A stretch of DNA of 29,402 nucleotides from a virus. Lineage: Duplodnaviria > Caudoviricetes. This document shows positions 10 through 18,639 of the stretch, piece by piece. The stretch spans positions 1-29,402 of the IMG/VR virus record IMGVR_UViG_3300028025_005807; one strand, written 5' to 3'. How positions within the stretch are numbered: position 1 is the stretch's first letter; the number at the start of each line of letters is the position of its first letter. The notes below the pieces were generated by a model that saw only the letters and a program-made list of their open reading frames with translations, did not search any database and had not been told where the DNA came from. A program made the position numbers and the translations under genes.

Positions 10-231
10 ATGGGCTTAAAAAACGGAATTAAAATTGGCGATATTGTTATTTGTATCAGTGAGCCAGATATGCCAGATTTTGTTGGATCTAAGTGGATAG
101 TCATGGATATATCTTCTGGAAAACAGCTTTACTATTGCACAAATAAATTATTATACTGGGAATCCGAAGGATTTCCATTTAAACCTAGTGAAATTATACT
201 TTCATCATCGCTAATGGAGGAATTATTATGA
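10..231 (+). CDS. Small KOW/SH3-like protein with C-terminal SSLMEELL tail (tail family 1)
   Basis: N-terminal IKIGDIV; ends SSLMEELL; stop overlaps next ATG (ATGA). Confidence 0.7.
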   Translation: MGLKNGIKIGDIVICISEPDMPDFVGSKWIVMDISSGKQLYYCTNKLLYWESEGFPFKPSEIILSSSLMEELL

Positions 232-557
232 CTGACTTAGAAAAAAAGTCAAAGAAAGAACTTGTGGATATTATTCTACAGCTCAAAACTAAGCTTGGAG
301 AAATGCAGGGAGTTGAAGCCAAACAAGATGCTTTAGAACAAAGTTTACCCGGTATTGGATTTTCTGTAATCCAAGATAGAGATGATCGATTTAAACTTTT
401 AGAAATTGCGTTTGACTTTGATTCAAAAGCTGCTACAATAAATAAAGTAGAGGAAGTGACTACTAACGGTTATGAATATGCTTTATACGAAGCTAAAAAG
501 TTCTTAATCGAAAGAGTTATGAATAAGAATAACTTAAACCATTTAAAGGAGAATTAA
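228..557 (+). CDS. Hypothetical phage protein
   Basis: 109-aa ORF with GGAGG upstream, operon-packed. Confidence 0.7.
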   Translation: MTDLEKKSKKELVDIILQLKTKLGEMQGVEAKQDALEQSLPGIGFSVIQDRDDRFKLLEIAFDFDSKAATINKVEEVTTNGYEYALYEAKKFLIERVMNKNNLNHLKEN

Positions 558-558
558 A

Positions 559-813
559 ATGGACAAAGAATTTTCAAAACGTCTTAAAAAACTAGTTCCA
601 GAGAACGGAGGATTTGATCTAAGTTTTAATCTATCAAATTCTGGTCAAGCAGGTAAAGTAGCTTCAACTCTTAACTTGACTATTTTTGGACCTGGTGTTG
701 AAGGTAAAGGTAATATTATTACAAAGAAAGTATCTATTCCAGCTATTGCCGCTACTATCGAAGAAGCTAACAGAGCTGCTTTAGAAGATACTCTAAGTCT
801 ATTGGGGGTATAA
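559..813 (+). CDS. Hypothetical protein
   Basis: 84-aa ORF with AAGGAG SD. Confidence 0.7.
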   Translation: MDKEFSKRLKKLVPENGGFDLSFNLSNSGQAGKVASTLNLTIFGPGVEGKGNIITKKVSIPAIAATIEEANRAALEDTLSLLGV

Positions 814-1413
814 ATGTCAGGATTAATTTATAAGAAAATGTCCGAAGTTATGCGAGACATTGGTTCAGTTGGAAAAGATCAAAAAAATCAAGCTCAAGGA
901 TTCAAGTTCCGAGGAATTGATCAGTTTGTGAACTCCCTTTATCCAGCTCTTACAAAACATGGAGTTTTTATGGCTCCTCGTTGTGTTAGTGAGCAGCACG
1001 AGCTAAAGGAAGTCACTAGAGGTTCTGGAAAGGCTGGAGTTGATAAGCATGTGACAATTCTAATGGAGTATGATTTTTTTGCTGAAGATGGTTCTAAAGT
1101 AACAGTTGGACCAATTCCAGCAGAGGGATTAGATTCTGGAGATAAGGCTACTAATAAAGCTTTGTCTGCTGCTTTAAAGTATGCACTTATTCAAACTTTT
1201 GCTATCCCAACAGAAGACATGGCTGAGGCTGATCTGGAAAGTCCTGAAATTGGAAGACGCTCTTCTAATATTACTATTTCAACAGCTCCAGTAAATAATA
1301 TTGACAAGCTAGAAGAAGTTATTGTAGAATCAACTCCAGCGGCTAGTCGTGGATCATTTAGAAAAAATAGTGCTAAACAAGCTACTACGTCAATCCCATC
1401 AGGAGACTTATAA
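814..1413 (+). CDS. erf: ERF-family ssDNA annealing (recombination) protein
   Basis: FKFRGID...HGV and DSGDKATNKALSAALKYALIQTFAIPTED match ERF superfamily motifs. Confidence 0.88.
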   Translation: MSGLIYKKMSEVMRDIGSVGKDQKNQAQGFKFRGIDQFVNSLYPALTKHGVFMAPRCVSEQHELKEVTRGSGKAGVDKHVTILMEYDFFAEDGSKVTVGPIPAEGLDSGDKATNKALSAALKYALIQTFAIPTEDMAEADLESPEIGRRSSNITISTAPVNNIDKLEEVIVESTPAASRGSFRKNSAKQATTSIPSGDL

Positions 1414-1769
1414 TGGAAAATGCAGGACGAGTTGTATCTAAAGCAGAAGTAACAGAGACATTAGTTAGGAATATTCTTTCAGATCAAGAAGAGTTTAGGA
1501 ATGCTAGATCGATTCTTCGTCACGGTCAAAAAGATAGACTTATGGAAGCCATGGCAGCTTATCCATTATTGGATGAAACTTTTGACACCTCAGAACCAGA
1601 GCTTAGAAGTGCTTTAACAATCTGGAAAAGAATTTCAGACAGTCTAGTAGCATTGGGAACTGAAGCAGCTATTGAAGGAATTATTAACGGATTTGCTAAC
1701 AATCAACAACAAAACGAAGCTAACGGCTTAACTAATGGAGGAACAAATGGCGAAAGCACAGAAGGGTAA
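1413..1769 (+). CDS. Hypothetical protein
   Basis: 118-aa ORF, GGAG SD, TAATG overlap with erf. Confidence 0.7.
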   Translation: MENAGRVVSKAEVTETLVRNILSDQEEFRNARSILRHGQKDRLMEAMAAYPLLDETFDTSEPELRSALTIWKRISDSLVALGTEAAIEGIINGFANNQQQNEANGLTNGGTNGESTEG

Positions 1770-2088
1770 GTATGCTACTGTAGGAAGTATTATTCTACAA
1801 TCTCAGTTTGATGAGGAAGGTAATCGTCTTGATGGAGAATACAAGACAGATGAAAAAGGTCGTAAACTGTACGCTCTTAGACTTGATAAGAACACAGAAG
1901 TTATTATCAACGGAGTTAACATGACCGGAAAGACTCTCTACGTTTCTCGTCCAGACACTAAGCTTGCAAGACTTCTTGACAAAGGTGTTATTGACAAGAA
2001 AGAGTTTGAGAAAAAAGTCGCTGACTTTGGTCCGGGTGGACGACTTGAGTTTGTGCAGATGGAAATTACCGCTGATCTAGAGAAATAA
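1747..2088 (+). CDS. Hypothetical beta-rich protein; possibly ssDNA-binding by context
   Basis: Start moved to ATG 1747, which follows GGAGG; near erf; followed by a terminator. SSB role is inference only. Confidence 0.55.
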   Translation: MAKAQKGKYATVGSIILQSQFDEEGNRLDGEYKTDEKGRKLYALRLDKNTEVIINGVNMTGKTLYVSRPDTKLARLLDKGVIDKKEFEKKVADFGPGGRLEFVQMEITADLEK

Positions 2089-2092
2089 AAAG

Positions 2093-2118
2093 GGGGCTGA
2101 AAAGCCCCTTTCTTCTTT
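2093..2118 (+). terminator. Rho-independent terminator, possibly bidirectional
   Basis: GGGGCT-GAAA-AGCCCC hairpin followed by TTTCTTCTTT and preceded by an A-run. Confidence 0.85.
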
Positions 2119-2127
2119 GGAGTTTAT

Positions 2128-2364
2128 ATGGATTTTAAGATCGGAGATGTTGTTATTTGTAGAGAGCCTACGTACGAAGGTCTTGGAAAGATATATGACA
2201 TAGAGACGTATGATCATGAAACTAATTTTTATAACGTTCTAGTTGTTTTTAATGAACACGTATATATAAATTCAAAAACAGCTAGTGATTGGATTGATAG
2301 TTATGTTTGGACTAATACCACTTACTTATCTCAAGCCTCAAGTTTAGAAAGGGAATTATTTTGA
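2128..2364 (+). CDS. Small KOW/SH3-like protein with SSLERELF tail (tail family 2)
   Basis: MDFKIGDVV start; ends ASSLERELF; TTGA overlap with next gene. Confidence 0.75.
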   Translation: MDFKIGDVVICREPTYEGLGKIYDIETYDHETNFYNVLVVFNEHVYINSKTASDWIDSYVWTNTTYLSQASSLERELF

Positions 2365-2585
2365 AATTTAAGATAGGGCAGTACAGACAAGCTCATGAAA
2401 AGTATGTGCAAGAAAGATACTTAAATGATGGTATTGATTCTTTAGCTTTGTACTCCGCTGTTGGTTTTTGTCCAATTTTGGCAGTGTATTGGTTTTGTAG
2501 AGAGATAGATTCTGATAATAAAGAATTGACGAGAAGAATCGAAGGTGTTAAGCTATTCTACGGAATCACCGAGGTTGAGGAATGA
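2361..2585 (+). CDS. Hypothetical protein
   Basis: TTG start coupled to upstream stop; begins KFKIG. Confidence 0.65.
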   Translation: MKFKIGQYRQAHEKYVQERYLNDGIDSLALYSAVGFCPILAVYWFCREIDSDNKELTRRIEGVKLFYGITEVEE

Positions 2586-2800
2586 ACGTTGGAAGATATG
2601 TAATAATAAAACCTTCCTACTGGACTGCCGACGGAGCTACTGTGATAGTAATTACCACTATAGATGAATTGCTGGGAGAGGCTTATTATTTTTACGAAAA
2701 CAGTCCTGAAAAAAATCCAATTATAAGACATCGCGCTATAGAAGACTTTGATCATGTGGAATTAGTTCCTGCGAGTAGTTTAATTTTAGAATTAATATAG
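2582..2800 (+). CDS. Small protein with SSLILELI tail (tail family 3)
   Basis: MNVGRYV start; ends ASSLILELI-TAG. Confidence 0.7.
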   Translation: MNVGRYVIIKPSYWTADGATVIVITTIDELLGEAYYFYENSPEKNPIIRHRAIEDFDHVELVPASSLILELI

Positions 2801-2810
2801 GAGAGAGGTC

Positions 2811-3818
2811 ATGATGACAAATTTTAATGAGAAGAGAAAGCAACAAATGGGAGTTAGAAGCTTGGCTGATCTTAAGAGATCTGGCAAAGTAACTGGCGGA
2901 TTAAATACAAAGCTTTTTGTCAACGGACCAAAAGAGTTCGATTGCCTTAAGAACCAGTGGAGTAGGCAAGAACTTCTCGGAGTAATTGGAGATTCTGGAG
3001 TTGGTAAGTCAGAAGTTGTTCTTTATTTCTTCAAGGAAATTCTTAAGAATAATCCGGAGTCTTGTGCGGTGTATGTGTCTTTAGAAATGACCGATGAAAA
3101 GATTTCTCAACGCTGGTTTAAGCTGACAGAAGATTGTCCAGAGATTTCGGAAAGGCTCTATGTTATTTCTCGTTACGATGAGTCCGGTAAGTCTAGAGAA
3201 GTTTCTATGGGTTGGATCAAGAAAGAGCTTCTAAAATATCGTGAAGTTATTGGAGACGTTGCTGCATTTGCAATTGACCACATTCACTGCCTTGGAGAGA
3301 ACGATCCATCAACGCTAAACTCTATTATGATCACGCTCAAAGAAATGGCGGTTGAGCTTAATGCTTTTGGTATTCCAATGGCACAGGTAAATAAAGGTGC
3401 GGGACAGAAAGGAGAAGTTCCTCTTGACGCAGATGCAGTTCTTGGATGTTCACAGTATAAGTATATTTGTAGTGATATTATCCAGATTCATAGACCTGTT
3501 CTAAGACTTGAGGAAGAGGCTAAGCTAAGTGTTATGGGGTGGGGTTATTGTAAGATCCGTGAAGCGGATAAAACTGACAAAGTTAAGCGTGGACAAAATA
3601 AACTTTTGGCGTATGATATCGACACTAGAGGGTTTAGAAAAATGACCACGGCAGAATACTCTACTTTTAAAATGTTCTACAATGAGCTTCTAGCTATGAA
3701 GTCTGCTGAAGAAAAGCACAAAGCTCACACATATGATTTAATAAAAGAAGTTGTAAGTCCTAGTGGTAAGGTAGTAGTAGTTGTAGAAAAGTTTAGCGGA
3801 GATAATGGAGACTTATGA
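2811..3818 (+). CDS. dnaB: DnaB-like (SF4) replicative helicase, ATPase domain only
   Basis: Walker A GDSGVGKS, YVSLEM, Walker B FAIDH, LKEMAVELN..MAQVN. Confidence 0.85.
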   Translation: MMTNFNEKRKQQMGVRSLADLKRSGKVTGGLNTKLFVNGPKEFDCLKNQWSRQELLGVIGDSGVGKSEVVLYFFKEILKNNPESCAVYVSLEMTDEKISQRWFKLTEDCPEISERLYVISRYDESGKSREVSMGWIKKELLKYREVIGDVAAFAIDHIHCLGENDPSTLNSIMITLKEMAVELNAFGIPMAQVNKGAGQKGEVPLDADAVLGCSQYKYICSDIIQIHRPVLRLEEEAKLSVMGWGYCKIREADKTDKVKRGQNKLLAYDIDTRGFRKMTTAEYSTFKMFYNELLAMKSAEEKHKAHTYDLIKEVVSPSGKVVVVVEKFSGDNGDL

Positions 3819-4012
3819 GAATAGATGAGCTAGTAATTAATAAGAAATATAAAGTTCCTATTTATTCTGGAAAAATAGTCGTGACTTATATTGGAGTGGT
3901 AGATACTCGTAGGTTACATTTTATTTGCCAAAATCAACGAAATTGGTATTATTCTAGAGTACACGATATACCAGCAGAAGAACTTTCATCCTTAGAGTTA
4001 GAGTTATACTAG
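3815..4012 (+). CDS. Small protein with SSLELELY tail (tail family 4)
   Basis: ATGA overlap with helicase; ends LSSLELELY-TAG. Confidence 0.7.
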   Translation: MRIDELVINKKYKVPIYSGKIVVTYIGVVDTRRLHFICQNQRNWYYSRVHDIPAEELSSLELELY

Positions 4013-4026
4013 ACATTGGAGTTATT

Positions 4027-4878
4027 TTGAAAATTAGTATTTACCCTAAAGTTAATTTTCTTCCAAAAAACAAAGATGATAAAATTCTACAGTCCAAATT
4101 AACCTCCAGTCCTAACCTTCCAGAGATTGTAGAAATACCAAATGATGAAGATTTGATTACCGCTGTGACCTCTTATGGTTGGAGTCCTTGTATATTTTCC
4201 AGTTATAGGAACAACAACAACTTCCTGTCCTGTGACTTTATGAGCTTGGATGTTGATTCTGGACTAACTATAGAAGAAGCTGAGAAGCGAGTGCAGAAAT
4301 TAGAACTTGCTTGCCTGTGTCTTCCAAGTCCTAGCTTCACGCCAGAGTTTCATAAGTTTAGGCTGATATTCCCACTTGCTAAAACAATTCTTATCACAGA
4401 AGATTTTGACGCTACATGGGACTGGCTTCAGCAACAATTCCCTGAACTTGACGCTCAATGCTCTGACTATGCCAGATGGTATGCTCCATCCAAAATGGAG
4501 GCTGGATTTTGGCAGGATGGAAATTTTCTTGTGCCGAAGAAAGCTCCAGAAAAAGAAAAGGTTACGTATAATTTAAAGGAAACTCAAGTCGAAGTTCCAG
4601 AGGAGTTATCGGAGGTAGTAAAGCTACTTTATGGGAAGGAGCGAGATTCGATTCCAGAAGCCGTGGAATTTTTTCTTACTAATGCACACACCGGATTGTC
4701 TGGACTTTGGATAAATTCACTCAATTCTTGCGTTTTTAGCTTGGCACTGTCCGGAGTTGATGATACACTTATCGAAGAAGTTATAGCCAAGGTTTCTCCT
4801 GATTCTTTGGATAAGAAAGATCTATATCAAATTAAAAGGTCTATAAGAGATGGAAAGAAAGCTAGAGAAAGTATGTAA
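4027..4878 (+). CDS. AEP-superfamily primase/primase-polymerase-like protein
   Basis: SLDVD (DxD), SPS...KFRLIFPL, LDAQCSDYAR; lies between helicase and polymerase; TTG start after GGAG. Confidence 0.7.
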   Translation: MKISIYPKVNFLPKNKDDKILQSKLTSSPNLPEIVEIPNDEDLITAVTSYGWSPCIFSSYRNNNNFLSCDFMSLDVDSGLTIEEAEKRVQKLELACLCLPSPSFTPEFHKFRLIFPLAKTILITEDFDATWDWLQQQFPELDAQCSDYARWYAPSKMEAGFWQDGNFLVPKKAPEKEKVTYNLKETQVEVPEELSEVVKLLYGKERDSIPEAVEFFLTNAHTGLSGLWINSLNSCVFSLALSGVDDTLIEEVIAKVSPDSLDKKDLYQIKRSIRDGKKARESM

Positions 4879-5077
4879 GTATAAAAAACAACTGAAAGTT
4901 GGGGAACGCTATTCTTTATCTAACTTAAAAATTTTTGATTATTCATTTATTGTAACAGATATAAACGAATATGAGATTCTTGTCATATATTCAGATGGAA
5001 TGAAGGGAAGAATAACTTATGAACCGTTTATAGTGTATGAATACCCACTGACTTCTTTGGAAAAGGAATTGCTGTGA
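4850..5077 (+). CDS. Small KOW/SH3-like protein with TSLEKELL tail (tail family 5)
   Basis: LKVGERY motif; ends LTSLEKELL; GTGA overlap with next gene. Confidence 0.7.
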   Translation: MERKLEKVCKYKKQLKVGERYSLSNLKIFDYSFIVTDINEYEILVIYSDGMKGRITYEPFIVYEYPLTSLEKELL

Positions 5078-5325
5078 AAGAGGCTTTAATCGACTATAAT
5101 GATATATGCTTTGAAAATTCCACTCTTATGCTGGAAATGGAAACTTTAAGCGATGACGCATTGTTGGACGAATGCAATCACATACTGGCTGGATTTTATA
5201 ATAGTGATTACATGGAAGACATACTTACTAACTATTTTAAATCTGGTAAGATTTCAAAAGAAGATAGAAGAAAAGCAGAGGGGTTATATCTTTTAGCTTA
5301 TGGAGATTTTGGGTGGGAAGTATAA
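5074..5325 (+). CDS. Hypothetical acidic protein
   Basis: GTG start after AAGGA. Confidence 0.65.
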   Translation: MKEALIDYNDICFENSTLMLEMETLSDDALLDECNHILAGFYNSDYMEDILTNYFKSGKISKEDRRKAEGLYLLAYGDFGWEV

Positions 5326-5510
5326 AAGTTGGAGATTCTATTATCATAACCGATTGTTCAATTGGTTATTTAGTTGGGGGAATTGGAATTGTTGTAGAGA
5401 TAGATGCTTTTCCAGCTAAAACTATATGGCCATATAAAATTAAATGCAATAATAACATAGCTTGGGCTGATGGTATCCTTCGTAGTTCTTTAATAGAGGA
5501 GTTATTTTGA
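5313..5510 (+). CDS. Small KOW/SH3-like protein with SSLIEELF tail (tail family 6)
   Basis: IKVGDSI...GIVVEI; ends RSSLIEELF; TTGA overlap with polymerase start. Confidence 0.72.
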   Translation: MGSIKVGDSIIITDCSIGYLVGGIGIVVEIDAFPAKTIWPYKIKCNNNIAWADGILRSSLIEELF

Positions 5511-7798: not shown

Positions 7799-7799
7799 T

Positions 7800-8120
7800 A
7801 TGAAATTAAAAATTGGCGATAAAGTAAAAATGACTAAGTATGGGTTTAAATTCCATTCCGACCTTGATATATCTTTTGAAATGAACTCAGTGTGTTCATC
7901 AATGAAACGAGAACATTTTACAAGTGCTGTGTGTGAGCTTTTCGCTATTAATGGAGTTGGTACAGTTAAAAAGTTTAATGAGGAAGGAGAACCTTATGTT
8001 CGGTGGGATTTCAAATTAGGCGGAATTAAGTACCACTACTCACACTACTATGATTTGACTAGTGTTAGAAAATTAAGTTTTTTAGATAGAATTATTTTTA
8101 AAATTAAAGGACTTATATGA
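7800..8120 (+). CDS. Hypothetical KOW/SH3-like protein
   Basis: MKLKIGDKV...GVGTVKK. Confidence 0.65.
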   Translation: MKLKIGDKVKMTKYGFKFHSDLDISFEMNSVCSSMKREHFTSAVCELFAINGVGTVKKFNEEGEPYVRWDFKLGGIKYHYSHYYDLTSVRKLSFLDRIIFKIKGLI

Positions 8121-8278
8121 TTTTTGTTTTAAAACTTGTTGTTGGCTTTATGATTGGTAAAATAATGGCTAAATTAGCTTTAACAGGACAGCTGAGTTTT
8201 GTGGCAGCTTTTGTATTATCAATCCTAACTACTATCCTTATTTGTGGACTTGTTGACAGGCTGGCAAAGAATGGATAA
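8117..8278 (+). CDS. Small membrane protein, 53 aa (not in the ORF track)
   Basis: Read by hand: MIFVLKLVVGFMIG...FVAAFVLSILTTILICGLV; AAGGA SD; ATGA overlap. Confidence 0.6.
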   Translation: MIFVLKLVVGFMIGKIMAKLALTGQLSFVAAFVLSILTTILICGLVDRLAKNG

Positions 8279-8459
8279 AAAAGACTTTTATAAAACCATA
8301 GAAGATTTTTTAAACTGTGACTCAGATCTAAGTTTTTCCAGAGAGTACTTTTGTGACGTAGTTCCCCCAAAAGACTTCTCAGTGCTTCAAAATTTCACAA
8401 CAGAGGAATTGGCTGAAGAACTTTGCAGAAGAACGTCATTGGGCAAGGAATTAAAATGA
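8271..8459 (+). CDS. Small protein with TSLGKELK tail (tail family 7)
   Basis: Likely start ATG 8271 (MDKKDF); ends RTSLGKELK; ATGA overlap with GT9 gene. Confidence 0.65.
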   Translation: MDKKDFYKTIEDFLNCDSDLSFSREYFCDVVPPKDFSVLQNFTTEELAEELCRRTSLGKELK

Positions 8460-9382
8460 TTGGAGACAAAACTATATACTGTTTAAATAGCGCGGCGGTT
8501 GGAGATTTGATTGCTTCAGCTCCGAGTATTAAATTTGCTATTGAGAACTTTCATAAAAAATCCGAGTACTTTGTAGGAATTCACGAACATTTTAAGCCAT
8601 TATTTCCGTTTGTTCCAGAAGATCGTTTTATAGAGGTCAAGGCTGATTACGACAAGTCATTTGCGGTTAGACACTTGAATATGCTTGGAGTTGGAGGAAT
8701 GAATTGTAAGCTCACTCCTTCTAGAATAAAGCTTACAGAATACGCCTCTATTGGGCTTTTAGGCAGAGTTTTGCCGGAGCAACAGCTTAGGTACGTATCT
8801 CTTCCAAAAGTTGATATAAGCCATTTTGGGGTGGATTTTAGCAATTCTGTTATTATCATGACAACTTACAGAGATAAGCAAAGATCTATTCTAGCTTCTG
8901 AAATAGTTAAAATAGCTGAGTATGTGACTGCTAAAGGTCTAACTCCGGTTTATGCCGGAAAGACTGGTGCTATAAGCATTTGGAAAAACAGTCTTGCCAA
9001 AACAGATTTTGAATACCCTGGATTTGGGGTTAATCTAATGGATAAGACAAGTTTACTAGAACTTGCTACAATTATGGGACAAGCAAAAGCTGTCGTCGGA
9101 ATGGACTCTGGACCTATTCATCTAGCGTTTACAACAGAGGTTCCAGTTGTTTGTGGGTTTACTACAGTGGCTCCAGACCTTAGAATTCCCTACAGGGGAT
9201 TGGCTAAAACAGAAGTAGTAACTCCCGATATCTTTTGCAATTTCTGTGAGTCTAACTGGTCTTTGAATTCGTGGAATTTTCAGAAGTGTCCTAGACAAAT
9301 GGAGCTTGCGGAATGTGTTACTAAGATGACATCTGATAAGTTTATAAAAGCTTTAAACAAATTAAATATATTTAAACCCTGA
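8456..9382 (+). CDS. Glycosyltransferase family 9 (heptosyltransferase-like, GT-B fold)
   Basis: AVGDLI, KTSLLELA, VVGMDSGPIHLA, C-terminal CxxC..C; start set at ATG 8456 after AAGGA. Confidence 0.85.
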   Translation: MIGDKTIYCLNSAAVGDLIASAPSIKFAIENFHKKSEYFVGIHEHFKPLFPFVPEDRFIEVKADYDKSFAVRHLNMLGVGGMNCKLTPSRIKLTEYASIGLLGRVLPEQQLRYVSLPKVDISHFGVDFSNSVIIMTTYRDKQRSILASEIVKIAEYVTAKGLTPVYAGKTGAISIWKNSLAKTDFEYPGFGVNLMDKTSLLELATIMGQAKAVVGMDSGPIHLAFTTEVPVVCGFTTVAPDLRIPYRGLAKTEVVTPDIFCNFCESNWSLNSWNFQKCPRQMELAECVTKMTSDKFIKALNKLNIFKP

Positions 9383-9841: not shown

Positions 9842-10023
9842 TGTGGTGGATAGATCCAGAATATCATGAAATTGATAAAAAAGAAGACACTATTGCATGG
9901 AGACAACAAAGTTGTTATCACGATTGGAAGGAAACTATACTTATTTTGAGCAAAGTTTATGACTGCAAGAAATGTGGTGTCAAAAAAGAAGACTACGAAA
10001 AGTGGGAAAAGGAGAAGTTTTAA
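9841..10023 (+). CDS. Small zinc-ribbon-like protein
   Basis: CYHDW...CKKCG. Confidence 0.6.
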   Translation: MWWIDPEYHEIDKKEDTIAWRQQSCYHDWKETILILSKVYDCKKCGVKKEDYEKWEKEKF

Positions 10024-10204
10024 ATCCGGAGATATTTGGTATGACCCATTTTTACAAGAGTTCTATTTAATTACAAAAAAATATAAAACTGAGTTGCAGA
10101 TAAAATGGTTACATAAAGATCTTACTCAACAAGTTAGTTTTCAAGAATGTTTAGAGGATACTTTTGTTAGAACAATTTCTAGCTTAGAAAAGGAGCTTTT
10201 ATGA
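9959..10204 (+). CDS. Small KOW/SH3-like protein with SSLEKELL tail (tail family 8); start uncertain
   Basis: FKSGDIW motif; ends ISSLEKELL; ATGA overlap with next gene. Confidence 0.65.
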   Translation: MTARNVVSKKKTTKSGKRRSFKSGDIWYDPFLQEFYLITKKYKTELQIKWLHKDLTQQVSFQECLEDTFVRTISSLEKELL

Positions 10205-10827
10205 GTGTTAATAAATATGTAGATAAATATGGAAGATATCACGACAAGCCTTGTTTGAACACAGAATCCTCTTCTAACAACGGTTGGGTTTACACCGCCT
10301 ACGCTGAAAAGCTTGGACTTGAAATAAACTATCCTAAACTCGCTACATGTTTTAGTGGTTGTAAGATAGCTAACAAAGACTTAGGCAATGGTATAGCTTT
10401 AATCAGAAGTCCTAATAAAGAACTGCCCCCAATGTCTAGAGACGAAGTTCTTGGGATGGTTGCGCTAGGATTTTTAAAACAACATCACTTAAACGGTTGG
10501 AATTTTAGCCCATATCCAATTCCTAAGTTTAATCTATTCAAAACTATAAGCCAGTTTTTAGAGCTTCGTGGTAAGCACAGAAACTACCTATGGCAGAATA
10601 AACTAGAACATACTTATAGGTTTGCTTTTTCAGTTCCTCTTTCAGACAGACACTTCATTCTACAAAAATGGGGAAAATTTAATCCTCTATACTGGCTTGT
10701 GGCTAAAGTAGACTCTATGATTGGAAATCCTACAAACGGAATTCCTTGGCTAAAGTATGGTGGACCTAAGAGAGAAATAGCTATGCAGTCAGAATTTCCA
10801 GAAGATCATCCATTAAGGAAATTATGA
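10201..10827 (+). CDS. Hypothetical protein
   Basis: 208-aa ORF with AAGGAG SD. Confidence 0.75.
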   Translation: MSVNKYVDKYGRYHDKPCLNTESSSNNGWVYTAYAEKLGLEINYPKLATCFSGCKIANKDLGNGIALIRSPNKELPPMSRDEVLGMVALGFLKQHHLNGWNFSPYPIPKFNLFKTISQFLELRGKHRNYLWQNKLEHTYRFAFSVPLSDRHFILQKWGKFNPLYWLVAKVDSMIGNPTNGIPWLKYGGPKREIAMQSEFPEDHPLRKL

Positions 10828-11458: not shown

Positions 11459-11589
11459 TGAGACAACCTGATTATCACGAAGAAAGAGTTAAGCTACAAA
11501 GATTTCAAGCAAAACTACACATAGCACAAGTCATAATTCAGTTCCTAACGTTCGTATCAACACTAATATTATTGGCAAGTAAACTATAA
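11458..11589 (+). CDS. 43-aa protein with C-terminal hydrophobic helix (not in the ORF track)
   Basis: MRQPDYHEER...IAQVIIQFLTFVSTLILLASKL; TAATG overlaps at both ends. Confidence 0.55.
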   Translation: MRQPDYHEERVKLQRFQAKLHIAQVIIQFLTFVSTLILLASKL

Positions 11590-11888
11590 TGATAACAATG
11601 ACTGTACTGGCTATTTTACTAACTGCTAATATGTTATTATTACACTTTGATAAAATAGTACAACTTTACTACTTTCTTTATAAGAAACTAATACCACCTC
11701 GTTTTAAAGTAGACGAATTAGTAATGATAGATAATGTAGAGTATAGAGTATTGCATGTAGCAAAAAGTTACAGACCTTATACATATTTTTGTTTACCTAG
11801 TAATGGATACCATGGTAGAATGCCAGAAGCTTACTTTCATGAGTCAAGAATTAAAAAGAAGACTGGATTATTAAAGGAGTTAGAGTGA
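11589..11888 (+). CDS. Membrane-anchored KOW/SH3-like protein with TGLLKELE tail (tail family 9)
   Basis: N-terminal hydrophobic segment, RFKVDELV, ends KTGLLKELE; GTGA overlap. Confidence 0.65.
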   Translation: MITMTVLAILLTANMLLLHFDKIVQLYYFLYKKLIPPRFKVDELVMIDNVEYRVLHVAKSYRPYTYFCLPSNGYHGRMPEAYFHESRIKKKTGLLKELE

Positions 11889-12697: not shown

Positions 12698-12715
12698 ACT
12701 TATAAAAAGGTTACA

Positions 12716-12967: not shown

Positions 12968-12969
12968 TT

Positions 12970-13155
12970 ATGAAACAAGGCGTTTACATTAATCTTAAAA
13001 ATGATCGTGGTGATCTTTGCTATTTTAATGGTGAAAAGCTTGAGATGCTCGAAGAGCTGTCTCTCATAGAATTCGAAGTTGACATTGATTATAATTTGAA
13101 TGATAATGCTATAACTGCTAATTTTTCTAAATTAGAATATCTAGGGAAATTATAA
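12970..13155 (+). CDS. Hypothetical protein
   Basis: 61-aa packed ORF. Confidence 0.55.
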   Translation: MKQGVYINLKNDRGDLCYFNGEKLEMLEELSLIEFEVDIDYNLNDNAITANFSKLEYLGKL

Positions 13156-13499: not shown

Positions 13500-13729
13500 T
13501 CGTAAAAACTATATTTAAAATTCATAGACTTGTATTTAGAAAGCCTTCAAAGTCTAATGTAAGAATGGCTTTAGAACAAAAGCAGTATATGTATGATCTA
13601 TCTTGGAGAGTTGGAATGTTGTACATTTGTGGAGAAAGTGTAGAAGGTATTTCTGAATGGCTTTCTGTAGAAGAGAGGGATATTATCAGTATGTTAAATA
13701 AATTAGCAGATGAGGTAAAGTATGAATAA
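13496..13729 (+). CDS. Hypothetical protein, possible HTH
   Basis: GESVEGISEWLSVEERDI resembles a helix-turn-helix. Confidence 0.45.
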   Translation: MIVKTIFKIHRLVFRKPSKSNVRMALEQKQYMYDLSWRVGMLYICGESVEGISEWLSVEERDIISMLNKLADEVKYE

Positions 13730-14141
13730 TGGAGTTCACTCTACTTGTGGAATTTTAGTGGTTGGAGATTTTGTAAAATTTAACTACCCATCTGGTTTAA
13801 AAAATGGTAGAATTACAGCCATAGTTGAGGGTATAAATAGCATATCCCTTTCAATATACTGCACTGATGATACTGGAGCATATACACTTACTGTACCACA
13901 CTATAGCGTTGTAGACTTAGTTAAAAAGGGGTTAAAGTTGGAAGACATTAAAAAGCCTGATAGATATAATAAGCGCGGAAAATTAGAGTGCTGGGACGTT
14001 ATTCTAGATCAGGAAATGAATTTCTTGGAAGGCAATGTTTTAAAATATTTGTGGCGTTATAAAGAAAAGAATGGCATTGAAGATTTAAAAAAAGCTAAGG
14101 TTTATTTGGACAAGCTTATTTCCGAGGTTGAAAAGAAATGA
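13722..14141 (+). CDS. DUF3310-family protein with N-terminal KOW/SH3-like domain
   Basis: PDRY..ECWD..FLEGNVLKYLWRYKEKNGIEDLKKAKVYL; N-terminal LVVGDFV..GRITAI. Confidence 0.8.
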   Translation: MNNGVHSTCGILVVGDFVKFNYPSGLKNGRITAIVEGINSISLSIYCTDDTGAYTLTVPHYSVVDLVKKGLKLEDIKKPDRYNKRGKLECWDVILDQEMNFLEGNVLKYLWRYKEKNGIEDLKKAKVYLDKLISEVEKK

Positions 14142-14311
14142 GATTAATCAAATGCACTACAAGTTTCTTAATAGGCTTTTACATAAGCTTTCTTGTAATG
14201 ATGATTGTCTCAGCCTATGTAATAACTACTGAGTTTGTTTCTAAAACTAGTCTTAAGACAAAACTTGTTTATATTGATGGAAGGGTATATGAAGTTAAGG
14301 AACAAAGATAA
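14138..14311 (+). CDS. 57-aa membrane protein (not in the ORF track)
   Basis: FLIGFYISFLVMMIVSAYVI; ATGA overlap. Confidence 0.55.
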   Translation: MRLIKCTTSFLIGFYISFLVMMIVSAYVITTEFVSKTSLKTKLVYIDGRVYEVKEQR

Positions 14312-14357
14312 ACTTATTTCATATCTATAATATACAACTACGCCATAAAGGAAACAA

Positions 14358-14642
14358 ATGGGAAGGAATCGCAAACCGAGTTTGGAAATAGAGTATGAAC
14401 TTGAAAGAGAAGTTAAGGACTTAAAGCAGGAAGTAGCTAAATTAAAAAAGATGTTGCGTAATTTAGAGAAGTCGAATAAAATAGAAAAAGTTGAGGAAGA
14501 TAAGGTTGTAGTAAAAGTAAAAAAGCCAGTAACAAAAGAATGTCCGAATTGTGGAGCTGTATTAAAGATATCAGATTTGCCTTTTGGAAAACTTGAAATT
14601 TGTGAAACTGGATGTGGTTATAGGAGTGTATTAAAAAAATGA
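14358..14642 (+). CDS. Coiled-coil plus zinc-ribbon protein
   Basis: Heptad pattern followed by CPNCG...CETGCGY. Confidence 0.65.
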   Translation: MGRNRKPSLEIEYELEREVKDLKQEVAKLKKMLRNLEKSNKIEKVEEDKVVVKVKKPVTKECPNCGAVLKISDLPFGKLEICETGCGYRSVLKK

Positions 14643-14812
14643 ATGAAAATCCAACAAAAGTAAAATGTTTAAATTGTGGAGATGTAATATTCTCCAGAAC
14701 TTATGGTCAGTTTGTTAGCTGTAAATGTAATAAGGTGGCTGTCGATGAGACTTCTTATTATATGAGAATACTAGGTGATAAATATGAAATAGTGGAGGAA
14801 GTAAATGAGTAA
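14639..14812 (+). CDS. 57-aa zinc-ribbon protein (not in the ORF track)
   Basis: KCLNCGDVI...SCKC; ATGA overlap. Confidence 0.65.
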   Translation: MNENPTKVKCLNCGDVIFSRTYGQFVSCKCNKVAVDETSYYMRILGDKYEIVEEVNE

Positions 14813-15221
14813 TGTGGTTAAAGGTGTTAGAATAACTTTAGAGCAAGTGTTAAATAGCGAAGCAGTAAGTGCGTCTAACGCAGACTTTGTTACGCCAAAA
14901 AAAGCTACCATACTATCCAATAATTCTGGGACGCTTATTCAAACAGAGGACGATAAATTATACATAGCCACTGTTGGAAATTGGTTTAGAAGCAGTTTCA
15001 ATGGAAAGGCAATTCCTCAGGTTGATGAGTTTAATAAGCTACAAGATATGGGGTTAACTGCTATTAAAGATAAAGTTGTAAGACATGAAGAAAAGTCTAA
15101 GGTAGAAGAAAAGAAAGTGGAGAAGTCAGATGGACAAGAAGTTCGAAGCCAAAATAATGTCATCCCTAAGAAAATTGACAAAGCAGTGGCCTCCAATACT
15201 AAAAGCGAAAAGAAAAACTAA
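14805..15221 (+). CDS. Hypothetical protein
   Basis: GGAGG SD, 138 aa. Confidence 0.7.
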   Translation: MSNVVKGVRITLEQVLNSEAVSASNADFVTPKKATILSNNSGTLIQTEDDKLYIATVGNWFRSSFNGKAIPQVDEFNKLQDMGLTAIKDKVVRHEEKSKVEEKKVEKSDGQEVRSQNNVIPKKIDKAVASNTKSEKKN

Positions 15222-15525
15222 GATTGGTCCAGAACTGCACCAGTGCCCCCTTTGTCAGCAAATTATCTATACTGGAAAACGTTCCATAGACGCAATACAG
15301 GTTGATCATCCAGCAGCTATTGCTGGTAGAATGGATGTAGATCACATAGATCCGGTTATACCTGTGGAAGATTCTGGAAAAGCTAAAGATTGGAATAAAA
15401 TAATACAGCGGCTATTTTGTGAAGAAGATAACGTGCAATCAATATGTTGGCTCTGTCACAAAAGTAAAAGTTTAGCTGAACGTGGCGATAGGGCAAAAGC
15501 CAGAAAAGAAAATAAAAAATATTAA
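15130..15525 (+). CDS. HNH endonuclease
   Basis: CPLC...VDHIDP...NVQSICWLCH..K. Confidence 0.85.
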   Translation: MDKKFEAKIMSSLRKLTKQWPPILKAKRKTKIGPELHQCPLCQQIIYTGKRSIDAIQVDHPAAIAGRMDVDHIDPVIPVEDSGKAKDWNKIIQRLFCEEDNVQSICWLCHKSKSLAERGDRAKARKENKKY

Positions 15526-15534
15526 AAATAAATA

Positions 15535-15563
15535 TTGTTTTTTATTATCACCTATGTTATAAA
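15535..15563 (+). promoter_or_regulatory. Putative sigma70-type promoter upstream of the clpP-like gene
   Basis: TTGTTT-N17-TATAAA with extended -10 TG, in an AT-rich gap. Confidence 0.5.
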
Positions 15564-15608
15564 ATTATTACAAACAATAGTGTTTGATTATTATTATTTG
15601 GAGAATTC

Positions 15609-16388
15609 ATGCGTAAACTTTTAATCCCATTAACTTTATTATGCAGTACGGCATTTGCAAAGCCAGTAGATATTGTATTAACGGAAAGAAATTCAGTTTC
15701 ATTTAATCAAGCTTTTACTAGTGAATACGTTGCTAAAAAACAATTAGAAATCTTTTCTAAAAATAATATGTTAGCTAGATCAGAACCTATTTATCTTGTT
15801 ATGGATACTCCGGGAGGATCAGTCGTAGCTGGATTAAATTTTATTGATAGCCTTAAAAGCCTTAAAAGACCAATTCATACTGTTACTTTATTCGCAGCAT
15901 CTATGGGTTATCAAGTCGTTCAAGAACTTGGAACAAGATATATTACTCCATCAGGGACTCTAATGAGTCATAGAGGGGCTGTATCTGGTATTGGTGGACA
16001 GATTCCTGGAGAGCTTAATTCCAGACTTGGCTATATTCAAGGGCTTTTAGAACAAATGAATAGGAAGGCAGCTTCTAGATTAAAGACCGATGTTGAAGCG
16101 TATAAATCTTCTATCGTTAATGAATTGTGGATTTTTGGTCAACAAGCCGTAGACACTAGAAACGCAGACGCAGTAGCAGATGTAAGATGTGATAAGAAAT
16201 TAGTTGAGGGAAGATATATCCAACAATTTAATACTATCTTTGGTTCTGCAGAAGTGGCGTTTTCTAAATGTCCTCTAATCTCTGGACCTATTGGATTTTC
16301 TTTTTCTAAAGAATTCAAGTCTCAGAATAGAGGAAGCTTTATTAAGAAAGTTCAGTCTAGTAAAAGAAGAATTCATTTAAACTTTTAA
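15609..16388 (+). CDS. clpP: ClpP-like (S14) serine protease with apparent signal peptide
   Basis: DTPGGSV..G, AASMG (Ser), LMSH (His); N-terminus MRKLLIPLTLLCSTAFA. Confidence 0.8.
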   Translation: MRKLLIPLTLLCSTAFAKPVDIVLTERNSVSFNQAFTSEYVAKKQLEIFSKNNMLARSEPIYLVMDTPGGSVVAGLNFIDSLKSLKRPIHTVTLFAASMGYQVVQELGTRYITPSGTLMSHRGAVSGIGGQIPGELNSRLGYIQGLLEQMNRKAASRLKTDVEAYKSSIVNELWIFGQQAVDTRNADAVADVRCDKKLVEGRYIQQFNTIFGSAEVAFSKCPLISGPIGFSFSKEFKSQNRGSFIKKVQSSKRRIHLNF

Positions 16389-16395
16389 GGTATAT

Positions 16396-16761
16396 ATGGG
16401 AAAGTCAATTGAGGAATTGTTAAAGCTTATAGAAGAAAAGCCTAAGACTGGAAGAAAAAGTAAAGAAGATAACAGAGATGTTGTTGACTTTATAAACGAC
16501 TTAGGTGTAGAATCTGGAACTGAAGCAATTCCCAATTACTTAATATTTTATGTGTATCGCTGTATTTGGAGAGCTGACCAGTCTAAGAAGAAAGCTAAAA
16601 AAATAACTTTCTTTCAAACTTTTGGAAAGCATTTTCCTGACTATAGAAAAAATCACCAAAGATATTATATGTTAAAACCGGGAATATTTAATGCTAATGA
16701 GGAAGTTCTAAAGGCTGCTAAACAATATGACAAACAACACTGGCAAAGTAAAAAAGCATAA
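16396..16761 (+). CDS. Hypothetical basic protein
   Basis: 121-aa ORF with AAGG SD. Confidence 0.7.
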   Translation: MGKSIEELLKLIEEKPKTGRKSKEDNRDVVDFINDLGVESGTEAIPNYLIFYVYRCIWRADQSKKKAKKITFFQTFGKHFPDYRKNHQRYYMLKPGIFNANEEVLKAAKQYDKQHWQSKKA

Positions 16762-17281
16762 AAAGAAATTTCAGTTTATAAATGGAAAGGGTGCTAGAGC
16801 GCACAGAAAAGAGTTCATTGAAACTTCATACACAAATGGAGTTTTGAATGAATACGGCGATCAAGTTATCAGACCTATGAATAAGCAAGAAATTGAATGG
16901 CTTGACAAGTTTTATAAAGAATTTGTACATAGCACTTTTACTACTGACGATGAGTCAATGAAGCTTTTTAAAAAAGCAAAAGCATTGACTAAAAAGAAAG
17001 AGAATGTTAACTTCTATAAAAAGAATGGATTCTTTCCAGAAGATGTCCAAACGGCTATAGATTCATTTAATGCAAAAAGTAAATCTCTTGGTAACTTAGC
17101 ATGGGATTTTTGGCAACAAAGAGATATTAATTCTGACGACTATAAGAGACGATACGATATTCAAAATAATTGCTCGAAAGGCGTTCAGATTGAATCTTTT
17201 GAAGACATACAAAACATAGCTGATTTAGATGAGTATGGTGATACAAAAATAGAAGATTTAATTACAGAGAGTGAAGAATGA
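16727..17281 (+). CDS. Hypothetical protein
   Basis: 184-aa ORF. Confidence 0.7.
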   Translation: MTNNTGKVKKHKKKFQFINGKGARAHRKEFIETSYTNGVLNEYGDQVIRPMNKQEIEWLDKFYKEFVHSTFTTDDESMKLFKKAKALTKKKENVNFYKKNGFFPEDVQTAIDSFNAKSKSLGNLAWDFWQQRDINSDDYKRRYDIQNNCSKGVQIESFEDIQNIADLDEYGDTKIEDLITESEE

Positions 17282-17466
17282 GCAGCATTAAAGTTAAGAA
17301 AGATGAGCAAACTGGGGAGTGTTATATTGACTTTAATGATATAGCCCACATGTTTGAAGACCCGTCCATTATTGAGTACTATGTGCTAGAAGAAAATGAG
17401 AAAGGTAATATTGTATTAGAATTTTTTGATAAAGACGAAAATCCAATCTACCCAGTTGAAAAATGA
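17278..17466 (+). CDS. Small acidic protein
   Basis: 62 aa, ATGA overlaps at both ends, directly upstream of clpX. Confidence 0.6.
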   Translation: MSSIKVKKDEQTGECYIDFNDIAHMFEDPSIIEYYVLEENEKGNIVLEFFDKDENPIYPVEK

Positions 17467-18389
17467 AAACACCTGAGCAAATTAAAAAAGAATTAGACGA
17501 ATACGTTATTGGTCATGACAAGACTAAAAAAGCCATGTCAGTGGCTGCTTATAACCATTTTAAAAGAATGGGCGGCAGTTCTATAAAAAAATCCAACGTG
17601 CTATTAATTGGACCAACTGGCTGTGGAAAGACTTATATAGTCTCAATATTAGCAAGAATTCTAGGAGTTAGCTTTTTGACAAGCGACGCTACTCAGTTTA
17701 CCTCTGCCGGATATCAAGGACGAAGTGTAGAAGAATTAATCACAGATCTTATCGGTATTTGCGAGGGCGACGAGAAGAGAGCAGCCAAGTCTATTATTTA
17801 CATAGATGAAATTGATAAGCTCAGAAAAAAGTCAATGGACGGAAATCAAGCCGATGTTAACGGTCTTGGAGTTCAACAAGCTCTTTTAAAACTGTTGGAA
17901 GGAAGCGAAGTTCCGTACATTTCTAAGTATTCGCAAAATGGCGAGTACGACAGGAAGATGAATACTAAAGATATTTTATTTATATGCTCAGGAGCTTTTG
18001 TTGGACTTGAGTCCACTTCAATAGCACACCTCACAGACTTTGGAATGATCCCAGAGTTTCTTGGAAGATTCTCGGTCATTACGCAGCTTCAAGAGCTTAA
18101 ATTTGACGACTATAGAAAGATCCTTCGTGACTCTAAGGGGTCTATCCTAAACTCGTTTAAAGAATGGTTTTTGAGCGAAAAAATTGAGCTTGTAGTAGAT
18201 GACAGTGCTATTAATATCATAGCTCAAAAAGCTATAGACAAGGGATTAGGGGCTAGAGGTTTGCACAGCGTTCTGGACGAGGCTTTACTAAATGCTCAGT
18301 TCGAAGCTCCTAGCTTAGCGATTAAACCTAAACAATTTATATTAGACTCTTCGGTGGTACTTAGTGGAAAAACCAAGTGGATTTATTAA
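17463..18389 (+). CDS. clpX: Minimal ClpX-like AAA+ ATPase
   Basis: LDEYVIG, AYNHFKR, KSNVLLIGPTGCGKT, IYIDEIDK, GVQQALLKLLEG, FGMIPEFLGRF, GARGL. Confidence 0.92.
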   Translation: MKTPEQIKKELDEYVIGHDKTKKAMSVAAYNHFKRMGGSSIKKSNVLLIGPTGCGKTYIVSILARILGVSFLTSDATQFTSAGYQGRSVEELITDLIGICEGDEKRAAKSIIYIDEIDKLRKKSMDGNQADVNGLGVQQALLKLLEGSEVPYISKYSQNGEYDRKMNTKDILFICSGAFVGLESTSIAHLTDFGMIPEFLGRFSVITQLQELKFDDYRKILRDSKGSILNSFKEWFLSEKIELVVDDSAINIIAQKAIDKGLGARGLHSVLDEALLNAQFEAPSLAIKPKQFILDSSVVLSGKTKWIY

Positions 18390-18639
18390 GTCATACACTG
18401 ACATAACTCTAGCTCCTTCTTTTGTGGATAGGATAAAGCTTCCTTTTGGGACGGTGTTTGTAGACAGGGTTATAACCCATGGAATTATAATATGCGATAA
18501 GATAGATTATGTAATTGAAGGCGATGAGCTAATTTTCATCAACGATATGACTTCTTATTTAGAACCGGGTGATCATGTTGTTATTTTGCACACAATTAGC
18601 GACTTAATTAACACAAGCTTAGGCAGGGAATTATTTTGA
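18364..18639 (+). CDS. Small protein with TSLGRELF tail (tail family 10)
   Basis: Overlaps clpX 3' end; ends NTSLGRELF; TTGA overlap with next gene. Confidence 0.65.
   Translation: MEKPSGFIKSYTDITLAPSFVDRIKLPFGTVFVDRVITHGIIICDKIDYVIEGDELIFINDMTSYLEPGDHVVILHTISDLINTSLGRELF

Follow-up and report, generated by a model that had tools for sequence, protein, structure and literature searches.

In the NorQ–NorD and CbbQ–CbbO systems a MoxR ATPase works with a vWA adaptor, and NorQD serves one dedicated target (PMC13036017). A MoxR/vWA pair is also known in group 2.2 jumbo phages (AAA_5 with DUF2201_N/DUF2201), where a role in virion assembly has been proposed (PMC7824862), and phage Bas54 needs a MoxR ATPase together with an unannotated gene to overcome the defence system DS-28 (PMC13716836). 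In T4, gp43, gp55 and gp33 are unrelated, yet they share a C-terminal motif that can be exchanged among them and that serves a single hub encoded by the phage, the sliding clamp (PMC2988020). The poxvirus ankyrin-repeat/F-box (PRANC) adaptors form an expanded family in which the binding part varies and a common part connects each member to a machine, the host ubiquitin ligase (PMC9414399). Finally, the bacterial FxSxx-COOH systems found beside vWA-MoxR systems with VMAP or FtsH components combine a zincin metallopeptidase, encoded by a separate gene, with a small, fast-diverging precursor ending in a conserved C-terminal peptide (PMC7159879). A literature search limited to article texts, whose supplements may bear on novelty, found no description of the tags reported below or of their arrangement with MoxR; passages of PMC9503650 likewise offered nothing relevant.

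The DNA analysed here, referred to as the window, is a fragment of 29,402 nt from an uncultured phage. The pattern [ST][SG]LxxELx-stop ends 10 of its 51 listed plus-strand genes, where 0.0005 would be expected from residue frequencies, a figure that overstates the case because the pattern was derived from these same sequences. When re-read from the sequence, the ten C-termini, their stop coordinates and the codons quoted for them in an earlier, sequence-only reading were all as it had given them. Every six-frame match in the window is directly followed by a stop, as had been claimed; an eleventh match (2645) falls within a short non-gene frame. The ten genes, and the clpX gene ahead of the last of them, are as follows.

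10..231, + strand: 73-aa protein with a KOW/SH3-like start and tail SSLMEELL (codons 205–231); NTGA overlap with the next gene; body groups with tagged proteins of G001–G003, G006 and L069
2128..2364, + strand: 78-aa protein with a KOW/SH3-like start and tail SSLERELF (2338–2364)
2582..2800, + strand: 72-aa protein with tail SSLILELI (2774–2800); no overlap with the helicase gene; orthologues end SPLMEELI, TTLTEELL and NPLIEELI
3815..4012, + strand: 65-aa protein with tail SSLELELY (3986–4012); no overlap
4850..5077, + strand: 75-aa KOW/SH3-like protein with tail TSLEKELL (5051–5077); phrog_1564, of unknown function, is a weak hit; the tails of orthologues are TPLEQELM (L053) and TDLIKALF (G003)
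5313..5510, + strand: 65-aa predicted five-strand SH3-like barrel with tail helix SSLIEELF (5484–5510)
8271..8459, + strand: 62-aa protein without a KOW start, probably helical, with tail TSLGKELK (8433–8459); 71 aa if begun at GTG 8244, ATG 8271 being the likelier start because of its overlap with the upstream stop; orthologues end TPLGKELE and SALGKELE
9959..10204, + strand: 81-aa KOW/SH3-like protein with tail SSLEKELL (10178–10204); relatives end SPLERELL (L011) and SDLEKALL (G003)
11589..11888, + strand: 99-aa protein with a hydrophobic N-terminal segment (a likely membrane anchor), a KOW/SH3-like domain and tail TGLLKELE (11862–11888); ten orthologues, that of G003 ending SDLLKSLL
17463..18389, + strand: ClpX-like ATPase without CxxC or IGF motifs; rejected as general reader of the tail
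18364..18639, + strand: 91-aa protein without a KOW start, with tail TSLGRELF (18613–18639), directly behind clpX; neither a Pfam hit above cut-off nor any PHROG hit

KOW/SH3-like starts had been ascribed to most of these proteins; six of the ten have the starts quoted, and those at 8271..8459 and 18364..18639 have none. None of the ten reaches a Pfam cut-off, for KOW or for any other named SH3-like family. Structure prediction covered one of them, the 5313..5510 protein, and gave a model of pLDDT 88.5 (last block 67) with a strand-rich barrel and a helix at residues 59–64, that is, a predicted SH3-like barrel followed by the tail helix. Its similarity to PsaE is weak (TM at most 0.63, with E above 0.001), as are the PsaE and KOW fold matches from an Atlas search.

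Scanning related phage proteomes, as the sequence-only reading had proposed, reveals 11–38 tagged proteins per genome in phages of 58–89 kb. The complete genome G003 has 37–38 tails, and 34 of its 134 small ORFs carry one. Across genomes the general form is [ST]xLxxx[LI]x, spoken in genome-wide dialects, some of them without Glu, and orthologues switch dialect together with the genome. When the 86 proteins of 11 orthologue groups are compared, the residues at tail positions −7 and −3 go with the genome (p = 0.0005 for either position), and the four other positions tested show no such dependence. A profile that omits the scored genome's own dialect finds 9–34 tails in eight tagged genomes and 10 in the window, against 0–3 in vWA-negative genomes; the shared profile fails to recognise the dialects of G016, G032 and G033.

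Which gene, then, accompanies the tail? Only two of 108 gene families occur in 10/10 tagged and 1/14 untagged genomes: an AAA+ ATPase of the MoxR type and the HExxH-peptidase/vWA protein that partners it. The next best family is in 6/10 and 0/14. The ATPase itself led to three of these ten tagged genomes, G011, G012 and G032; without them the count is 7/7 against 1/14. For 15 new genomes the prediction was fixed beforehand, and tails were found in three of four with the pair and in none of 11 without it (p = 0.009). In each of the ten tagged genomes the two genes lie side by side and have the same domains as the jumbo phage pair; gp24 of coliphage N4 matches the ATPase distantly (28% identity). 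What sets the present subfamily apart is its 11–38 tagged mini-proteins per genome, tagged small proteins not being mentioned in the passage that proposes virion assembly for the jumbo phage pair (PMC7824862).

In G001, on which domain assignments were made, the ATPase matches PF07728 over cut-off and has GIGKS and FFDELN as Walker A and B motifs. The top fold matches of its model are NorQ (Z 15.4, rmsd 4.1 over 185 residues) and CbbQ2 (Z 14.2, rmsd 4.3 over 187), with no clear fold or family match in this whole-ATPase model for the C-terminal helical domain (residues about 254–389). The partner matches PF13203 and PF09967 over cut-off and has an N-terminal HExxH peptidase and a C-terminal vWA domain with MIDAS; H67-E68-x-x-H71, D282-x-S284-x-S286, T338 and D360 are invariant in 38 partner sequences. 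The arrangement thus differs from NorQ–NorD and CbbQ–CbbO in the peptidase on the partner, the extra helical domain of the ATPase and an apparent second tier of small proteins. The pair is common in phages, 442 phage-collection records matching the vWA protein; a single viral scan that used the vWA protein of G006 as query gave no match. As a separate observation, a search of 50,697 phage records with the capsid protein gave one match only, to a Silvanigrella-associated record (25% identity).

Most genes next to the pair are small. In G002, G016, G022, L360 and L399 tagged genes stand between the ATPase and vWA genes; in G011, G012, G025, L355, L357, L363, L367, L370, L384 and L385 they come immediately after the vWA gene. 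The pair is absent from the window itself, but a 19,362-bp contig of run X12, from a near-identical strain rather than from the window's own record, joins window positions 1–2122 (59 other letters, 25 gaps) to pieces of both pair genes 7–9 kb upstream.

Since the tag changes in step within each genome and travels with the ATPase and its protease partner, it is likely to be a plug for one machine. We narrowly favour a reading in which a helix-forming tail docks the small proteins on the phage MoxR ATPase/vWA-metallopeptidase and the variable heads are interchangeable substrate adaptors; judged from sequence, this ATPase and peptidase, which lie outside the window and were not among the partners named in the sequence-only reading, are the best candidate for the partner, and a library of substrate adaptors is the likeliest role of the tagged proteins. 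A clamp or a host complex, two of the partners named in that reading, is not needed to account for the tail. The tail would probably act as a short helix that plugs each mini-protein into the phage's own machine, its two leucines binding a groove that probably lies in the C-terminal helical domain of the ATPase near residue 363. The heads would bind host or phage targets, the ATPase would remodel the target so held and the HExxH domain may cut it; this remodelling is plausibly directed at host defences. The earlier proposal of a variable head joined to a constant, protein-level C-terminal piece for one common partner is supported by the tag's presence on unlike bodies, by the dialects and by the head replacement described below.

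One ATPase residue partly co-varies with the tail dialect. Where tail −3 is Glu, residue 363 is K/R (6/6 genomes); it is Leu in 10 genomes whose −3 is hydrophobic or Ala, and Asp in the one genome whose −3 is Lys. The rule fails in four of 13 new loci (L363, L365, L367 and L434, with K/R and a hydrophobic −3) and in G011, and G012 has Leu in one alignment and Gln in another. Only three ATPase columns split the dialects, which 2.4% of 126 labelings reach. The vWA protein, in which no column does so, was set aside as dialect reader, although the evidence is weak. Mimicry of the ATPase's own last helix by the tail was likewise rejected and kept only as a lead, as just four of 67 ATPases (L117, L118, L120 and L124) beat the 99th percentile of 758 controls.

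The T4 motifs serve three proteins of known function and are always acidic-hydrophobic, with the clamp as hub, whereas here dozens of mini-proteins carry acidic or basic dialects and the gene tracking the tail is the MoxR pair. With the PRANC adaptors, whose F-box is C-terminal, the likeness is one of analogy without homology, and they recruit a host ligase rather than a putative phage-encoded, ATP-driven machine.

Sequence alone cannot tell an adaptor from a substrate, and the co-occurrence, adjacency and dialect evidence would fit equally well if the tail marked these early proteins as substrates for the machine to unfold, mature or destroy, perhaps freeing a C-terminal peptide. The HExxH and MIDAS motifs of the partner are intact, and the FxSxx-COOH systems offer a precedent in their metallopeptidase and small variable proteins with a conserved C-terminal peptide. 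Here, however, the genes are dispersed in their dozens over phage genomes, many heads are probably folded, the peptidase is fused to vWA, and the tails are unlike the FxSxx, RxD and poly-acidic peptides as that source describes them (PMC7159879). Compact heads are moreover swapped between close strains under a kept tail, as would be expected of binding modules: in contigs of three other runs, 148 other letters stand in place of the body at 5341–5484, and from the first tail codon onwards the sequences match again. Any of 17 residues may occupy the last position in a set of 180 tails and, in remoter genomes, up to about 10 further residues follow the motif, so that the classical C-terminal degron suggested earlier fits poorly. 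A free terminal carboxylate, suggested as a general requirement by 189 tails at a single register with none at offset 0, 2, 3, 4 or 5 in 1,387 ORFs, was also dropped once these non-flush dialects turned up. Together with the likely membrane anchor of one member, these features make a substrate tag somewhat unlikely.

We consider it unlikely that the tail docks elsewhere, on a host complex, a membrane or other tagged proteins, with the MoxR pair a fellow traveller in an accessory module. Independent gains are few, because the seven tagged genomes not found via the ATPase form only two clades on the capsid tree, and the pair is not sufficient for tails: a tail within 10 kb was flagged at 8 of 77 distant MoxR loci, and in G020, which also encodes the pair, just one neighbour is tail-like. 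Basic dialects resemble membrane-targeting amphipathic helices, and self-assembly of the tagged proteins would also give genome-wide dialects. Against this, no other family of the 108 tracks the tails, which sit inside the pair's operon and follow it across unrelated capsid backbones. G012 shares 7 of 157 ORFs with G001, the pair being two of the three best matches, and has 11 tails; G007 and G008 are nearer to G001 than G011 is in capsid, portal and terminase, yet have neither pair nor tails. Mean tail charge, acidic in the window's clade, ranges between genomes from −1.7 to +1.8 (+1.0 in G006, +1.8 in L069), which would suit neither one membrane nor one conserved host surface.

Could the tail be merely the structural end helix of expanded SH3-like paralogues, its register held by Shine-Dalgarno sequences and gene overlap, with no docking at all? 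The KOW-like starts would agree with this, and NTGA overlaps end 8/10 tagged and 13/41 untagged window genes (p = 0.01), so that Shine-Dalgarno dual use of the tail is real: where genes overlap, the next gene's Shine-Dalgarno rides on the tail, and codon −4 ends in G at 74:19 with overlap and 8:26 without. In the window's clade the Shine-Dalgarno of the following gene probably helps to fix the stop-flush register. Dual use does not create the motif, however, since none of the 13 untagged overlapping window genes ends EL-x (0 or 1 per genome elsewhere). As 49 of 180 tails have no gene overlap, and the window tails at 2800 and 4012, where the motif had been noted to persist, have none either, Shine-Dalgarno or overlap constraint alone, raised earlier as a possible cause of the motif's frequency, is rejected. 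Codon usage bears on both sides. The serine codons switch (TCN 9, AGY 6), as had been noted, and in G001, G002 and G006 the use of synonymous codons is close to that expected; a DNA repeat or gene conversion was rejected as general cause. The same-codon fraction is slightly above expectation in G003 and L011 and clearly so in L069, L053 and the window's Leu codons (0.49 and 0.62 at the two positions against 0.26 expected; TTA in 15 of 20, more uniform than genome usage). The earlier claim of conservation at the protein level holds in general but less cleanly for the window's leucines. Bodies that lack a KOW start carry the tail too, as do proteins of 143 aa and, with a DUF6745 domain, 241 aa. 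Homologues in untagged genomes gave no picture of tail addition: of 185 tagged proteins, two had a body homologue there, both are DUF6745-like, and the homologue in G020 has a tail-like end of its own. With Glu-free dialects, orthologues that switch with the genome and the link to MoxR left unexplained, an end helix without docking is very unlikely. Last, the window's own ClpX, the common partner suggested earlier, can hardly be the general docking site or degron reader for the tail although clpX lies directly upstream of one tagged gene, as it occurs in only 2/10 tagged genomes and in untagged G004, is absent from complete G003 with all its tails, and in the window lacks both the CxxC of the N-terminal zinc-binding domain of ClpX and the IGF motif.

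Taking docking on the MoxR pair as the preferred reading, we propose tentatively, and with rather more doubt than belief, that a widespread group of phages encodes a programmable protein-remodelling system, a MoxR ATPase-peptidase core with 10–40 swappable mini-adaptors, each having a fast-evolving head for binding and a shared docking helix that co-evolves with the ATPase. Such a system, directed against host defence proteins, would correspond in prokaryotic viruses to F-box adaptor logic. Genomes that differ naturally in dialect, G001 and G003 for example, are suited to specificity swaps. If the tail is a plug, the MoxR–vWA-peptidase pair and the small SH3-like phage genes, which make up a large part of unannotated phage DNA, would gain a function at once, and up to a quarter of small ORFs in the tagged genomes would become candidate adaptors recognisable from sequence. 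The same reading could explain why Bas54 must have an unannotated gene as well as its MoxR ATPase to overcome a defence system (PMC13716836) and, if true, might provide a compact, ATP-driven and re-targetable tool for protein remodelling.

The C-terminal tail [ST][SG]LxxELx is found on 10 of the 51 listed plus-strand genes in the window, against 0.0005 expected from residue frequencies, an expectation that overstates the case because the pattern was derived from the same sequences. The ten C-termini and their codons, as described in the sequence-only reading, agree with the window. A stop codon directly follows every motif match in the window, and an 11th match, at 2645, falls in a non-gene frame. 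All ten tagged proteins stay below the Pfam cut-off, and one weakly matches a PHROG of unknown function. The other phage genes in the window include Erf, DnaB-like helicase, PolA, ClpP-like and ClpX-like genes. Relatives of 58–89 kb, found by helicase, ClpX, ATPase, vWA and capsid searches, carry tails in genome-specific versions, or dialects.

Tail dialects in the window and in related phage genomes (G) and loci (L), with tail numbers counted by genome-specific patterns in brackets
SSLxxEL[LF]: window, G001 (25), G002 (13)
[ST]PLxxEL: L011, L053
T[EDP]Lx[KE]AL: G003 (38)
SPLY[KQ]ALK: G006 (25)
TKLE[QK][VA]LK: L069
PLL[RK]xIY: G011 (14)
TKLE[KR]VIYG: G012 (11)
HP[IT]LVKLW: G016 (14)
SKL[IV][RK]AL: G022 (14)
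SEL[LI][KQR]EL: G025 (21)

The register is exact in the window's clade, where, of 1,387 ORFs, 189 have the motif at a single offset and offsets 0, 2, 3, 4 and 5 are empty. In G011, G012, G016, G022 and G025 up to ~10 further residues follow the motif, so a free C-terminal end is not a general requirement. A profile omitting the dialect of the genome being scored recovers tails in 10 of 49 small ORFs of the window, 34 of 134 of G003 and 30 of 178 of G025, and 0–3 in vWA-negative genomes; it misses the tails of G016, G032 and G033. Within 11 orthologue groups, covering 86 of the 180 tagged proteins, positions −7 and −3 (counted back from the C-terminus) track the genome (p = 0.0005), and positions −8, −5, −4 and −1 do not. 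Since many loci switch in step, a single reader is suggested. Another family of repeated small proteins, MKRS[EV]...WE[PS]E[DN]EE, has a single copy in the window (18636–18839) and about five tandem copies at L057:1700–3140. Window 8423–9382 encodes a family 9 glycosyltransferase (heptosyltransferase-like), which only some relatives have.

The bodies upstream of the tail form 92 clusters among the 180 tagged proteins. A single window protein, 5313–5510, was folded; its model, from an 18-row alignment, is an SH3-like barrel (pLDDT 88.5) that weakly matches PsaE and KOW, with the tail as a helix of lower confidence at residues 59–64. Some tagged bodies lack the KOW start and some are longer (143 aa, and a 241-aa DUF6745 protein). 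In contigs of sequencing runs X3 and X12 (labelled freshwater) and X10 (aquatic), 148 other letters take the place of the body of 5313–5510 (5341–5484); a run X2 contig skips a similar stretch. The strain match restarts at 5484, the first tail codon; it continues into polA, so the conservation there is partly that of the next gene. Most of the 208-aa gene at 10201–10827 is missing from run X12 (window 10244–10766), and the N-terminal part of the 99-aa tagged gene (window 11600–11761) has diverged in three runs. Window 7800–8120 has a KOW-like start without a flush tail; its amphipathic end, SFLDRIIFKIKGLI, is similar to the dialects whose motif is not flush, or else to a membrane-targeting helix.

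Eleven families, including a MoxR-type AAA+ ATPase and an adjacent HExxH-peptidase/vWA protein, remained when four tagged genomes were compared with two untagged ones. ATPase relatives led to G011, G012 and G032, in which tails occur on different genome backbones; G012 and G001 have 7 of 157 ORFs in common. Scored against G001, the terminases of G007, G008 and G011 reach 413, 424 and 312 bits and the capsids 341, 327 and 304 bits, and G007 and G008, nearer to G001 than G011 is, have neither the pair nor tails. As a prediction test, the vWA gene was scored before the C-terminal scan in 15 new genomes of at least 70 kb from a capsid search. Four were vWA-positive, and tails were predicted there in advance; in the unbiased scan G016, G022 and G025 showed motifs and G020 did not, its gene after the pair ending NSLLETVM plus six residues. 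Among the 11 vWA-negative genomes G017 was over threshold (a cluster of 8, rich in Lys and lacking a consensus), as was the control G004. The association in the 15 genomes gives p = 0.009, or p = 0.033 if G017 is counted. Across 24 genomes the pair are the only two of 108 families present in 10/10 tagged and 1/14 untagged genomes. If the three genomes reached by way of the ATPase are set aside, the figures are 7/7 and 1/14; those seven represent two capsid clades, and the p-values therefore overstate independence.

Tagged genes lie between the pair or directly behind it in at least 15 of the 30 loci listed. The pair is insufficient for tails: pairs without a tail are common, with 8 of 77 ATPase loci flagged in a first survey and 29 of 88 in a second, the 29 comprising 9 known genomes, 1 duplicate, 4 apparently chance matches and 15 new motif-bearing loci. 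The window, a 29.4-kb fragment, lacks the pair; on a run X12 contig of 19,362 bp, window 1–2122 occurs together with pieces of both pair genes, which lie 7–9 kb upstream. Other C-terminal motifs near MoxR pairs are CPTxxLF, RxEKLKRIL, DYxKLxKIL, LVxWLY, WLxGFY, WRxVIxVY, IETLKxxK, IEYMKxxK and RKMYPKA (from L121, L170, L375, L384, L385, L387, L399, L400 and L493), and small ORFs of Ser-Trp or Ser-Arg repeats occur near the pairs of two different phages (L160:13226–13930; L113:13418–13609).

In the model of the ATPase (pLDDT 84.6) the core is NorQ/CbbQ-like, and the helical domain, about 254–389, gave no clear fold match. Three alignment columns in the ATPase and none in the vWA protein split five genomes with Glu at −3 from four with Ala, a number reached by 2.4% of 126 labelings. 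One of these, column 363, is K/R in the Glu genomes versus Leu in the Ala genomes; G016, outside the split, has Asp there and tails with Lys at −3. With the prediction noted beforehand, 13 new loci were tested. Hydrophobic tails went with Leu in six of them, with Thr/Gln in two and, as misses, with K/R in four; the remaining locus, L360, pairs Lys with a Glu tail. A fifth miss is G011, and the residue of G012 varies with the alignment used; G020, G032, L361, L368, L384, L385, L387, L399, L400 and L493 were excluded for mixed or unclear register. The rule that we keep is one-way, Glu occurring only with K/R and Leu never with Glu (p = 0.003, uncorrected for kinship). This co-variation is suggestive of the ATPase as the reader. 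The ATPases of G001, G002, G006, G013 and G014 (L106:10001–11185), though not of G003, end DIPF, EIPF or SVPF, which we take to resemble the bacterial SSB tail. EVLRKVYG, an end close to the tails of G011 and G012, is found on the ATPases of L117, L118, L120 and L124, which belong to a tail-less subfamily whose other members score poorly.

On balance we lean towards a mechanism in which the tail would dock on the C-terminal domain of the MoxR ATPase, the variable heads would bind targets, and the ATPase–peptidase machine would remodel or cut the targets so bound. The main rival keeps the same reader and makes the tagged proteins its substrates, which we consider unlikely. Rather less likely still is that the tails serve another reader or the self-assembly of the tagged proteins.

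That the tail is a structural helix combined with a Shine–Dalgarno constraint seems improbable. Eight of the 10 tagged window genes end in an NTGA overlap versus 13 of the 41 others (p = 0.01), and the third base of codon −4 is G in 74:19 with overlap and 8:26 without; because this bias tracks overlap, the next gene's Shine–Dalgarno is superimposed on the tail. As the maker of the motif it is ruled out by the 49 of 180 tails without gene overlap and by the untagged overlapping genes, of which 0 or 1 per genome has an EL-x end. Ser codons in the window tails are 9:6 TCN:AGY. The same-codon fraction at identical tail residues is 0.34 versus 0.35 expected in G001, 0.35 versus 0.36 in G002 and 0.31 versus 0.30 in G006, with higher values in the window (0.45 versus 0.36, TTA being responsible), L053 (0.45 versus 0.34) and L069 (0.50 versus 0.34).

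ClpX, one of the common partners first proposed, is ruled out as a general tail reader by gene content: two of the 10 tagged genomes encode it, as does the untagged G004, and the complete G003 lacks it. We give docking on it hardly any chance. The window's ClpX (17463–18389) lacks the CxxC and IGF motifs, and its ClpP-like protein (15609–16388), widespread in this phage family, has a signal-peptide-like N-terminus; the two probably do not make up an ordinary ClpXP. The Erf-like protein (814–1413) and the helicase (2811–3818) end IPSGDL and SGDNGDL. Such acidic G-D-L ends recur in G001–G003, though the Erf-like gene of G001 differs, and they are possibly a common replisome docking tail, for which T7 gp2.5 and gp4 offer an analogue.

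The pair itself is known from jumbo phages, a role in virion assembly having been proposed for it (PMC7824862), and NorQD illustrates how a MoxR ring engages its vWA partner (PMC13036017). Analogues are offered by T4 clamp-binding motifs (PMC2988020), FxSxx-COOH systems (PMC7159879) and poxvirus ANK/F-box adaptors (PMC9414399). No account of tagged mini-proteins serving a phage MoxR as a library turned up in the literature searched, from which most subscription papers were missing; the MoxR–vWA kind of machine is already known, and the adaptor tier appears undescribed. To overcome DS-28, Bas54 depends on both an unannotated gene and a MoxR ATPase (PMC13716836). By analogy with Bas54, and from the turnover of their heads, the tagged proteins may have an anti-defence role.
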